Shown in pieces: positions 4,238-60,157 of a DNA stretch of 64,000 bases; position 1 is the first letter of the stretch; each line of letters starts with the position of its first letter. The notes below the pieces were generated by a model. The model did no database searches. It was not told where the DNA came from and worked only from the letters and a program-made list of their open reading frames with translations. Made by a program: the position numbers and the translations under genes. This DNA comes from Octopus vulgaris (taxonomy: Eukaryota), in the NCBI GenBank assembly GCA_951406725.2, contig OX597816.1, positions 83,390,001 through 83,454,000 of the forward strand. Reading direction: 5' to 3'.

Positions 4238-4612
4238 ATGTATGTATATATATATATATATATATATATCATGGATTCTCTCGTCGTGAGCGACAAATAA
4301 AAATAAAGGTTAAGAAAATAAGCTGGTAATCATGTTCTATGGACATGCATGTGTCTCATGAGGCCCGCTGGTGCCTTGCAAACCTTTTGCCAAATAAAAC
4401 AAGTTGAGGATTCAGTTTGCTCGAGTGTTTGCGGATTATTTGCTATGTGTTTTCTTGTGTGGACGGCAAGACCTGCCGTGCTCCGTGCTACTAAACTTCG
4501 TGCTAATGATGAGTAAGGGTTTCACTTAGAGGAGCGCATTTTACTACGAAGTCGGTACCGATACTGGAATCGACTTTAATGATAGAAAAAAAGCTAAAAT
4601 ACAAAATAATAT

Positions 4613-5030
4613 CTTATTTCTTTATTGCCCACAAGGGGGTTAACATAGAGGGGACAAACAAGGACAGACAAACGGATTAAGTCGATTACATTGACCCCAG
4701 TGCGTAACTGGTACTTATTTAATCGACCCCGAAAGGATGAAAGACAAAGTCGACCTCGGCGGAATTTGAACTCAGAACACAACGGCAGACGAAATACTTA
4801 TTTCTTTACTACCCACAAGGGGCTAAACACAGAGAGGACAAAAAAGGACAGACAAACGGATTAAGTCGATTATATCGACCCCAGGGCGTATCTGGTACTT
4901 AATTTATCGACCCCGAAAGGATGAAAGCAAAGTCGACCTCGGCGGAGTTTGAACTCAGAACGTAGCGGCTGACGAAATACCGCTAAGTATTTCGACCGGT
5001 GCGCTAACGTTTCTGCCAGTTCGCCGCCTT
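4613..5030 (-). mobile_element. SINE family A (Meta-domain type), one head plus duplicated body
   Basis: Reverse complement of aaggcggcgaactggcagaaacgttagc..., followed by two copies of ctttcatcctttcggggtcgat; ~185-bp internal period. Confidence 0.9.
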
Positions 5031-12564: not shown

Positions 12565-13212
12565 TCTTTTCTACTCTAGGCACAAGGTCCGACATTTTTG
12601 GGGAGGGGGGAGGGAATCGATTAGATTGACTCCAGTACGCAACTGGTACTTAATTTATTGACTCATAAAAGGATGAAATGCAAAGTCGACCTCGGGGAAT
12701 TTGAACTCAGAACGTAAAGACATACGAAATACTTATTCCTTTACTGCCGACAAGGGGCTACACACAGAGGGAACAAACAAGGGAAGACAAACGAATTAAG
12801 TCGATTATATCGACCCCAGTACGTAACTGGTACTTATTTAATCGACCCCGAAAGGATGAAAGCAAAGTCGACTTCGGCGGAATTTGAACTCAGAACGCAA
12901 AGGCAGACGAAATGCCTATTTCTTTACTACCCACAAGGGGCTAAATACAGAGAGGACAAACAAGGACAGACAAACGGATTAAGTCGATTATATCGACCCC
13001 AGTGCGTAATTGGTACTTATTTATTCGACCCCGAAAGGATGAAAGGCAAAGTCGACCTCGGCGGAATTTGAACTCAGAACATAACGGCAGACGAAATACT
13101 TATTTCTTTACTACCCACAAGGGGCTAAACACAGAGAGAGCGTAAAGACAGACGAAATACCGCTAAGCATTTCGTCCGGTGTGCTAACGTTGCTGCCAGC
13201 TCGCTGCCTTTA
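12565..13212 (-). mobile_element. SINE A multimer (three bodies plus a partial one, single head)
   Basis: ~185-bp tandem of ctcagaac...acaaggggcta...cgaccccagt; head at 13150-13212. Confidence 0.9.
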
Positions 13213-28632: not shown

Positions 28633-29045
28633 GGCGAGCTGGCAGAATCGTTAGCACGCCGGGCGAAATGCTTAGTGGTATTTCGTCTACCGTTACGTTC
28701 TGAGTTCAAATTCCGCCGAGGTCGACTTTGCCTTTCATCCTTTCGGGGTCGATCAATTAAGTACCTGTTACGCACTGGGGTCGATGTAATTGACTTAATC
28801 CGTTTGTTTGTCCTTGTTTGTCTCCTCTGTGTTTAACCCCTTGTGGGTAGTAAAGAAATAGGTATTTCGTCTGTCGTTACGTTCTGAGTTCAAATTCCGC
28901 CGAGGTCGACTTTGCCTTTCATCCTTTCGGGGTCGATTAAATAAGTACCAGTTTCGCACTGGGGTCGATATAATCGACTTAATCCGTTTGTCTGTCCTTG
29001 TTTGTCCCCTCTGTGTTTAGCCCCCTGTGGGTAGTAAAGAAATAA
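28633..29045 (+). mobile_element. SINE A body dimer with target-site duplication
   Basis: 184-bp internal period, flanked by gggattaacc(c/t)tttaa at 28617 and 29046. Confidence 0.9.
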
Positions 29046-57757: not shown

Positions 57758-57945
57758 ATCCTTTCTACTTTAGGCACAAGGCCTGGAATTTGAGGGGAAG
57801 GGGATAGTCAGTTACATCGGTACAATAGTACTTGATTAGTACTTAATTTATTGACTCCAAAAGGATGAAAGGTAAAGTAGATCTCGGCGGAATTTGAACT
57901 CAGAAACTCAGAACGGACGAAATGCCGTTCCCGGTGTGCTATCGA
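57758..57945 (-). mobile_element. SINE A
   Basis: aatcctttctactttaggcacaaggcctg...aggatgaaagg...ggcggaatttgaactcagaa. Confidence 0.8.
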
Positions 57946-58083: not shown

Positions 58084-58116
<33 letters not shown>

Positions 58117-58376
58117 TGAGGGAGATAAATTAATATTAATTTTAATATCAATCTAAAACCAGTAGTCCAGCATTCAAAAAATCTGAGGAGTCAGAGAAAA
58201 TTCAAATATATGTGTATATTGGCAGGGCTGGCCTGCTAGGTAGCCGGCCAGAATGCTAGAAATAGATCATCAACGATCAAACTACAAGGGAAATTCTCTA
58301 GAGGAAGAATTCAGCGAACACCAGAACCAAATTTGGCGGGCAGGACATATGAACAATTAAATAAAAAACAGACTTA

Positions 58377-58452
58377 AATGCATACCTCGGTTTCGGTCTT
58401 AACAAAAGAATTACTTGCATAATTCAAGTGTCCGTGACTTCTTCAGTACATT
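58377..58452 (-). ncRNA. Type I hammerhead ribozyme
   Basis: Reverse complement of 59127-59202. Confidence 0.85.
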
Positions 58453-59126
58453 CGGTCCTCGAGATGCAAACCGCAAGACTAACCCCAGCTCTCTGTGTCA
58501 AGACAGACACGTGCTTAGTCTTACTGATTACATCGGGAATAAAATTTCAAATGTCTTGGTTCCGGCGCGCTAAGAGACTCCTGAAGCGAAGGGCTGCAGT
58601 GAATAATTCACTGCGGGTAAAGCTTACTTCTAGGGAACGTATTTATTTAAATATTTAAAAATTGAGGGAGATAAATTAATATTAATTTTAATATCAATCT
58701 AAAACCAGTAGTGTTCGCTGAATTCTTCCTCTAGAGAATTTCCCTTGTAGTTTGATCGTTGATGATCTATTTCTAGCATTCTGGCCGGCTACCTAGCAGG
58801 CCAGCCCTGCCAATATACACATATATTTGAATTTTCTCTGACTCCTCAGATTTTTTGAATGCTGGACTACTGGTTTTAGATTGATATTAAAATTAATATT
58901 AATTTATCTCCCTCAATTTTTAAATATTTAAATAAATACGTTCCCTAGAAGTAAGCTTTACCCGCAGTGAATTATTCAAATGCAGCCCTTCGCTTCAGGA
59001 GTCTCTTAGCGCGCCGGAACCAAGACATTTGAAATTTTATTCCCGATGTAATCAGTAAGACTAAGCACGTGTCTGTCTTGACACAGAGAGCTGGGGTTAG
59101 TCTTGCGGTTTGCATCTCGAGGACCG

Positions 59127-59202
59127 AATGTACTGAAGAAGTCACGGACACTTGAATTATGCAAGTAATTCTTTTGTTAAGACCGAAACCGAGGTATGCA
59201 TT
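59127..59202 (+). ncRNA. Type I hammerhead ribozyme, GUA site
   Basis: aatgta-CTGAAGA-agtc..acttg aattatg caagt..gacc-GAAA-ccgagg-TA-tgcatt; 6-bp stem I, extended stem II, minimal stem III. Confidence 0.85.
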
Positions 59203-59387
59203 TAAGTCTGTTTTTTATTTAATTGTTCATATGTCCTGCCCGCCAAATTTGGTTCTGGTGTTCGCTGAATTCTTCCTCTAGAGAATTTCCCTTGTAGTTT
59301 GATCGTTGATGATCTATTTCTAGCATTCTGGCCGGCTACCTAGCAGGCCAGCCCTGCCAATATATACATATATATATATATATATAC

Positions 59388-59557
59388 ATTTCGTTTTTGG
59401 ATTTGGTTTGCAAGATTCTTTATGTGAGTTCGTGTGTTGAAGCACATTCTGTTGTGTCTGGGGAGAGTCAATTTCTTTTTGTGCCTTATAATTTAACAGA
59501 CTCACCGGTAAAATTACAAGGCACAAAAAGAGCATGACTCTGTCCAGACATAACAAT
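59388..59557. mobile_element. Short TA-flanked insert with fold-back (no HHR retained)
   Basis: 59450-59494 is inverted at 59511-59555; TA runs on both sides. Confidence 0.6.
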
Positions 59558-59768
59558 ATATATATATTTGAGTAATTGAATGAATTATCTTATTAAGGAT
59601 AATTCGAAAGATAACCGATACCTGGGTAGCAAATTCACATCAGAAAGAACACGGTTGAAACTACGTCCATAGGGCATAGACTACGTGTCTTCGTGCGGAA
59701 ATTTGTATGTTTATTTTAAAATTATAAGTATATGAAAGAATGGAGTTGAACGACTAGTTAACAAATAT

Positions 59769-59863
59769 CCTTTATTCTCGACATATGTTTCGAAGGCTGC
59801 ATATTCCTAATTCCGAAGGAATAAGGAGTACATTATGCAGATTTCTCATCAGGAAAATCAAGG
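59769..59863 (-). ncRNA. Type I hammerhead ribozyme
   Basis: Reverse complement of 59989-60083. Confidence 0.9.
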
Positions 59864-59988
59864 AACTTATGTCGACAACAAAATGCACAAAAAACTTTTA
59901 GCTGACCGCTCTCAAGGAGCCCATGGGCTCCTTGAGAGGCGGTCGGTCAGCTAAAAGTTTTTTGTGCATTTTGTTGTCGACATAAGTT

Positions 59989-60083
59989 CCTTGATTTTCC
60001 TGATGAGAAATCTGCATAATGTACTCCTTATTCCTTCGGAATTAGGAATATGCAGCCTTCGAAACATATGTCGAGAATAAAGG
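59989..60083 (+). ncRNA. Type I hammerhead ribozyme, GUC site
   Basis: ccttgattttc-CTGATGA-gaa..ctgcata...tatgcag..ttc-GAAA-catatg-TC-gagaataaagg; canonical core and long stem I. Confidence 0.9.
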
Positions 60084-60125
60084 ATATTTGTTAACTAGTC
60101 GTTCAACTCCATTCTTTCATATACT

Positions 60126-60157
<32 letters not shown>

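Follow-up and report, generated by a model that had tools for sequence, protein, structure and literature searches.

A young head-to-head hammerhead retrozyme insertion in Octopus vulgaris and its likely twin priming on one RNA template

Architecture of the locus and its hammerhead motif

The window considered here is a 64,000-nt stretch of the Octopus vulgaris genome (assembly GCA_951406725.2, contig OX597816.1, positions 83,390,001 to 83,454,000, forward strand), a microsatellite-rich genome of 2.8 Gb. At 58084-59387 the window carries two head-to-head arms, made up of 1.10 and 1.20 units of a 546/547-nt repeat, with a (TA)n microsatellite flanking each side. The parts of the locus are as follows.

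58084..58110, no strand: left half of the (TA)n target microsatellite, from sequence reading
58111..58712, minus strand: left arm, 602 nt, 1.10 units, period 546; 3′ terminus at 58111, coinciding with the "long" start site A
58111..58166, minus strand: left-arm terminal redundancy, 56 nt, equal to 58657-58712 (56/56 bases identical)
58711..58712, no strand: GT overlap where the 5′ ends of both arms join
58711..59364, plus strand: right arm, 654 nt, 1.20 units, period 547, ending at the "short" start site B
58911..58938, plus strand: internal copy of start site A, traversed by the right arm, from end mapping
59258..59364, plus strand: right-arm redundancy, 107 nt, exact, equal to 58711-58817
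59365..59387, no strand: right half of the (TA)n target, within which a target-site duplication is not definable

A first-pass annotation had described two opposite-strand copies, each longer than one unit, that meet in a GT overlap, and the arm lengths, periods and redundancies listed above bear this out. The match that defines the right-arm redundancy continues to 59373 through TA-like bases. The two arms are 99.4% identical over 508 nt. The sense of the ribozyme lies on the minus strand in the left arm and on the plus strand in the right arm, and the 3′ ends of both run into (TA)n. When the arms are placed on a common register, the right arm begins 155 nt upstream of the point at which the left arm stops. 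An open reading frame with a reverse transcriptase and a GIY-YIG endonuclease, as in an autonomous Penelope-like element (PLE), is not present in the element; its longest stop-to-stop frame is 97 amino acids, antisense to the ribozyme, in agreement with the earlier view that no frame is credible.

The hammerhead motif occurs once in each arm.

58376..58453, minus strand: type I hammerhead motif, left copy, 78 nt, same sequence as the right copy, predicted cut between 58383 and 58382
59126..59203, plus strand: type I hammerhead motif, right copy, 78 nt, predicted cut after 59196
59188..59195, plus strand: palindromic stem III octamer, predicted to pair between two motifs (double hammerhead)

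All of the elements of a type I hammerhead (a CUGANGA...GAAA core, an NUH site and three stems, with stem I open) can be paired in this motif, which combines a 7-bp stem I, the core CUGAAGA...GAAA, a long stem II capped by a GCAA loop and a GUA site. The predicted GUA site is intact in both motifs, as expected from the annotation's claim that each arm crosses the cleavage site without interruption. The base of stem II is irregular, beginning with an A.C opposition or a bulged G-C, and similar stem II variants are found in PLE hammerheads (PMC4209133; here and below, statements about cited papers refer to the parts of them that were available). The stem III octamer pairs with itself through tandem G.A pairs at −6.6 kcal/mol, compared with +1.8 kcal/mol for a lone hairpin; stem III is thus predicted to pair between molecules yet not as a hairpin, which fits cleavage as a dimer and supports the dimer-type stem III proposed previously.

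Because a search of the whole window at Rfam gathering thresholds gave 0 matches, the ribozyme call rests on motif, fold and variation pattern. The predicted hammerhead fold lies 1.7 kcal/mol above the local optimum, and the 96-nt motif region folds with a z score of −0.13. A viroid-like RNA replicon would be expected to carry ribozymes in both polarities and to fold into a compact rod; one hammerhead motif per unit was recognized by eye here, and the unit folded as a circle has a z score of only −2.2 against 40 shuffles. Across the family described below, core position 7, which is free to vary, is A in 135 passes and T in 54, and the two common changes in stem I preserve pairing. At the 16 positions of the core, 8 of 3149 cells are variable, compared with 1343 of 88363 elsewhere, a figure that is biased low for the core because many loci were retrieved by exact core patterns. 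The pattern of variation fits what would be expected of a ribozyme under selection. The junction at the predicted cut site is seamless, with 0 to 2 differences per position across about 144 passes.

A 546-nt tandem unit with one hammerhead, a noncoding sequence with a GC content of 39% and dispersed, recently mobile copies are among the marks of a retrozyme, and these are found here. The window element is a young insertion of a noncoding hammerhead-bearing repeat of this kind.

A dispersed family with two fixed start sites

Exact matches to four family motifs occur 184, 349, 260 and 508 times in the genome. The second of these counts is that of the 17-nt ribozyme motif; the counts for the motifs on the two sides of the cut, 349 and 260, should not be compared directly, since a polymorphic base lies within the latter motif. 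From the matches listed, a selection that favors long arms containing the ribozyme, we mapped at least 137 distinct insertions on many contigs, with a mean divergence of 2.3%. Overlapping windows of one insertion, matches of less than 85% or of about 20 nt, and two duplicated insertions (L160 and the second copy of L099) were left out, as was, from the variant count, an older piece at L096. At L099 and at L159/L160, whole insertions are duplicated with the junction intact, 1.8 kb and 325 kb apart, respectively; these are later DNA-level duplications.

With register numbering beginning right after the predicted cut, the 3′ ends of the family lie at two A/T-rich sites inside the unit, separated by 107 nt, while the 5′ ends are scattered. 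Site A lies at about 262-289 (about 272 nt past the predicted cut in the window) and site B at about 159-179; the right arm of the window element ends at site B, about 165-177 nt past the predicted cut. Two arms were present at 95 of the 137 loci, with 3′ ends at A/B in 73, A/other in 19, B/other in 2, A/A in 1 and B/B in 0; the remaining 42 had one arm only. Among pairs in which both ends fell at A or B, 73 of 74 used one of each (P = 4e-21 against independent choice, under which half of the 74 pairs would be alike). The "other" 3′ ends lie mostly at 100-143 and run into TA, and a few appear interrupted. B ends, which contain ACAC, were followed by CA-run flanks in 6 of 85 cases and A ends in 0 of 117, pointing to pairing with the target. 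The proposal that priming occurs at TA-like internal sites is supported. The annotation had also regarded the copies as differently permuted, with fixed termini as the finding that would count against it; the arms do differ in register and their 5′ ends vary, but they are not free permutations, since the 3′ ends are fixed at two sites.

The 5′ ends are concentrated at one place.

59092..59096, plus strand: 5′-end hot spot at register 440-447, with 14 of 209 arms in 8 nt compared with 3 expected

This hot spot recurs across subfamilies, no promoter motif was recognized by eye there, and it could be an RNA start or a pause. Stops at the predicted cut showed no excess (3 of 209 arms, compared with 1.5 expected; P = 0.2). 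Three loci (L002, L214 and L217) and one piece of L007 have an arm whose 5′ end lies at the predicted cleavage site, which is suggestive but within chance.

Of the 168 arms at the first 111 loci examined, 69 were longer than one unit, 5 were longer than two and 3 were longer than three. The longest arms reached 3.9 units with a seamless ribozyme junction, and lengths of 2 to 3.9 units were attained on several haplotypes; arrays above about 4 units were not found among the 137 loci drawn from the matches listed. Overlaps of 1 to 4 nt were seen at 34 of 68 simple junctions. A few loci consist of three pieces, which implies that template jumps occur.

Sharing of variants between arms and laps

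The two arms of an insertion, and their successive laps around the unit, largely share variants. For variants present in at least four loci, every pass of the two arms agreed at 175 of 189 sites, and divergence was 0.57% between laps and 0.73% between arms, compared with 2.3% between loci. Two variants are unique to the window locus.

58879, plus strand: variant unique genome-wide to the window locus, shared by the two left-arm passes, where it lies within 58149-58160 and within 58695-58706
59225, plus strand: second variant unique genome-wide to the window locus, present also in the left arm, within 58350-58361

The second left-arm pass that holds the 58879 variant is clipped by the junction. 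Privacy was verified genome-wide for these two variants, and the others described here are private among the sampled loci. Twenty-four variants restricted to one sampled locus occur in every pass of that locus, and 119 single-locus variants are confined to one pass, as expected of later mutations. Locus-private variants that run through different laps numbered 14, in 12 loci, compared with 1 that is lap phased. The lap-phased variant, at L114, occurs in each of the two arms, which is what a mixed linear array would produce, while at L094 a variant present in both laps of one arm only fits neither a circle nor a mixed array.

The positions at which arms stop are also related. Of 65 simple pairs, 8 had arms whose stops lay within 10 nt of each other on the template, compared with 1.9 by permutation (P = 0.0004). 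Stops in the same register but in different laps, as would arise from laps colliding on a circle, numbered 2, compared with 1.3 expected, and thus showed no excess. Judged by these sequences, both arms are copied from one template haplotype.

One triplet behaves differently. At 59105-59107 (register 456-458), passes of one insertion vary in 17 of 47 loci, mostly between GCG and TCA, though other variants agree; in older subfamilies the triplet is TCA or ACA. As TCA it is the complement of a sequence in the ribozyme core, at a distance of 30 nt, suggesting a recurrent hairpin-templated change.

Relation to Penelope-like elements and a probable mechanism of insertion

A second hammerhead-bearing head-to-head element lies 200 nt from the window element, at 59556-60129, and between the two, at 59450-59555, is a 106-nt imperfect hairpin (77% self-complementary) that is possibly a small inverted-repeat element. 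The second element is the 3′ end of a PLE family with 2787 candidates, longer copies of which continue into reverse transcriptase- and GIY-YIG-like frames. The ends of this family lie about 57 and 213 nt past its predicted cut, and an opposite arm with the short end is present in 15 of 30 loci. In the 59556-60129 copy, the 5′ ends of both arms halt at the same base, and in the family 17 of 30 long arms have their stops crowded into a 36-nt interval immediately below a TATA-like box, a pileup that looks like runoff from a linear RNA.

The genome also contains an autonomous PLE that is very young (L221-L270, e.g., G000:C3:37226137-37238316); its unit measures 2.59 kb, and its 717-aa frames are open. 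This family has 22345 candidates, of which the 150 scored are 99 to 100% identical. It forms head-to-head arrays of up to five tandem units and has a hammerhead-like motif with the core CCGAAGA and a 67-nt tail. Nineteen head-to-head loci were retrieved, and in all 16 that were resolved at both ends (16/16), one end was long and the other short. Protein look-alikes of both PLE families in the atlas combine RVT_1 with HTH_animal, and those of the 2.59-kb family include GIY-YIG in 21 to 47% of members in several clusters. Pfam gave a single weak RVT_1 match in one of three PLE frames, and a search of solved structures for the PLE protein gave 0 matches. Comparison of the 546-nt unit with these two PLE families revealed no similarity beyond A/T-rich matches. 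In the start sites of the three families, several share CAAT or CAAAT directly ahead of the TA run, a candidate recognition motif. A loose end in run X9 was considered as a partner element and rejected as flanking DNA, because the 20 sequences fetched of its 28 genomic matches lacked similarity to the unit.

The anatomy of PLE insertions, namely, an inverted truncated copy, a one-sided tail and a microsatellite target, is that of the 546-nt family as well. PLEs have been described with pLTRs in inverted orientation, one of which bears a tail (PMC3846280), and with partial tandem copies, a truncated copy in inverse orientation, a tail that is often confined to one end and (TA)n targets (PMC8557442). 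The family thus resembles endonuclease-bearing PLEs in its head-to-head copies, one-sided tail, 5′ truncation, short overlaps, (TA)n targets and hammerhead upstream of the ends. It differs from them in having no open reading frame and in that the rule of one long and one short end and the shared haplotype have been counted here. The tail is 107 nt, compared with 30 to 40 nt in those two papers and with 67 and about 155 nt in the two PLEs of the host. The annotation had read the registers of the arms as the footprint of a circular RNA, a reading that the registers do not by themselves support, since two fixed starts combined with random 5′ truncation are the known footprint of a PLE, and the autonomous PLE of this genome behaves alike. 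A connection to PLEs was not named in the annotation.

The purified Poseidon PLE of the green anole (Frangieh et al. 2024, PMC11167929) cuts and extends both strands of its target and has two internal start sites that define the tail, and the protein is predicted to act as a dimer. Hammerhead mutants left its insertion unaffected, and unprocessed RNA was the main substrate. The octopus family resembles Poseidon in its two tail-defining internal starts, its use of both target strands and its A/T-rich targets. It differs in that Poseidon uses starts without target homology, uses the same starts on either strand and does not need cleavage, whereas in the 546-nt family the two start sites are both target-like and one insertion makes use of each of them once.

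Among metazoan non-long terminal repeat (non-LTR) retrozymes (Cervera and de la Pena 2020, PMC7229834; Li, Clavereau and Pollet 2026, bioRxiv 10.64898/2026.07.22.740005), a noncoding low-GC tandem unit, one type I hammerhead in each unit and many dispersed copies are likewise the rule; a dimer-type stem III is found in those of amphibians, and a link to PLEs has been proposed. The 546-nt unit is larger than the 170- to 400-nt RNAs of the former paper but falls inside the 51- to 972-bp range of the latter. In the parts available, neither describes head-to-head arms or fixed start sites. Circular RNAs have been demonstrated for coral, mussel and axolotl retrozymes (PMC7229834), and a circle of the kind considered here has been proposed for PLEs (PMC4209133).

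L1 twin priming, in which a single RNA is primed twice, leaves an inversion with a microhomology joint, and the arms derive from different parts of a linear RNA. Unlike those of L1, the two arms of the octopus element copy the same stretch and can exceed one unit.

Taken together, these observations suggest that the reverse transcriptase-endonuclease of a PLE likely started cDNA synthesis on either side of a cut TA microsatellite, with the same RNA, probably a single-unit circle, as the template for both. The arrays would be transcribed; tandem hammerheads would cut as dimers, and a host ligase would close the monomer, by analogy with PMC7229834. The PLE protein would then bind this RNA and cut both strands of (TA)n, such that one cDNA starts at site A and the other at site B, aided by A/T base pairing. 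Each cDNA would be of random length, displacing its partner and lapping the circle when long, and the two cDNA ends would finally be joined through microhomology. We regard PLE-type priming on both strands as highly probable and assign to the whole chain, including the circular template, a probability of roughly 0.6. An RNA-templated origin and a template longer than one unit, both advanced in the first-pass annotation, are supported. Because the two-site registers match the known "inverted copy plus tail" footprint of PLEs, the circle does not follow from registers alone; it is still the likelier template, as the annotation had held, but by way of variants carried through successive laps, which favor twin priming on one RNA and a single-unit template. 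Contigs from runs presumed to be RNA cover the unit, which speaks for its presence and not for expression, strand or circularity; a unit-containing stretch is found in 19 of 24 run rows, none recorded as RNA, with run labels that name four organisms.

The same PLE twin priming might have used an uncleaved or partly cleaved linear transcript of a multi-unit array, which would make a circle unnecessary. Such a template would suit the preference of the anole PLE in vitro for unprocessed RNA (PMC11167929), the runoff-like 5′ pileups in the neighboring PLE and at register 440-447, the coincidence of arm stops within the same lap, the lap-phased variant of L114 and the case of L002, where an arm reads through one intact ribozyme and ends at the cut site that follows. 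A cycle that is linear only, however, can shorten arrays but can neither lengthen them nor spread a new variant to all units, which points to a circle, and variants that cross laps outnumber the lap-phased case 14 to 1. The multi-unit arms on several haplotypes and the limit of about 4 units among the matches listed also weigh against a linear template. We consider it less likely than the circle, though templates may be mixed. Cleaved linear monomers joined by template jumps, or expansion and homogenization at the level of DNA through unequal crossover or conversion between arms, are improbable. Inverted arms are able to convert each other, and the few three-piece loci do show jumps; local expansion by unequal crossover is discussed in bioRxiv 10.64898/2026.07.22.740005. 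Against this reading, the cut-site junction is seamless, conversion at the window locus would need to have covered three passes that lie in two orientations, and the shared haplotype is the rule across young loci.

The second arm could instead be a fold-back copy of the first cDNA, an idea of self-priming raised in PMC3846280, or the product of a local DNA inversion. Near-perfect palindromes with both arms from one point (L199, L200 and L201) are what fold-back would leave, and it may account for a minority of loci. It is excluded at the window locus, where the right arm begins upstream of the left-arm stop, and is very improbable as the general explanation, given that the B arm exceeds the A arm in 26 of 59 pairs and that arm lengths are uncorrelated. 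The reach of the short-end arm also upholds the earlier rejection of a simple inversion. That the design is an artifact of assembly is scarcely credible: the exact junction was unbridged among the 32 contig pieces listed (372 more exist) from four other runs, which is uninformative, while 95 loci share the design with differing junctions. Furthermore, an independent run has three other head-to-head joints, and site A ends run into TA in four runs, so that the design is not peculiar to the assembly used.

The literature already covers retrozymes and their connection to PLEs, as well as inverted copies with a tail on one side and the pair of start sites. In a literature search by title and abstract opening that took in few subscription papers, we found neither twin priming for PLEs or retrozymes nor octopus retrozymes, nor a head-to-head anatomy for retrozymes. 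Both PMC8557442 and PMC11167929 describe the way in which PLEs form tandem and inverted insertions as an open question, and bioRxiv 10.64898/2026.07.22.740005 says the same of the route by which retrozymes re-enter the genome. What this locus contributes is counts, in that each start site is used once per insertion, each insertion has one haplotype and its laps are alike, and these counts constrain how PLEs and retrozymes insert. A tentative generalization, for which the odds are somewhat less than even, is that PLEs and retrozymes integrate by twin-primed rolling-circle reverse transcription, in which a protein dimer copies one circular RNA from two fixed starts, one for each side of a cut microsatellite, and each cDNA is able to lap the circle. 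If true, such copying alone would account for the partial tandems and pseudo-LTRs as well as for the inverted copies and the tail on one side. The presence of a 546-nt noncoding template and a very young 717-aa PLE in one genome makes the question directly testable.

The window contains, in addition, a 184-nt dispersed repeat, partly in tandem, at 4608-4980, 12617-13139, 28677-29044 and 57790-57945, which we take to be an octopus SINE.
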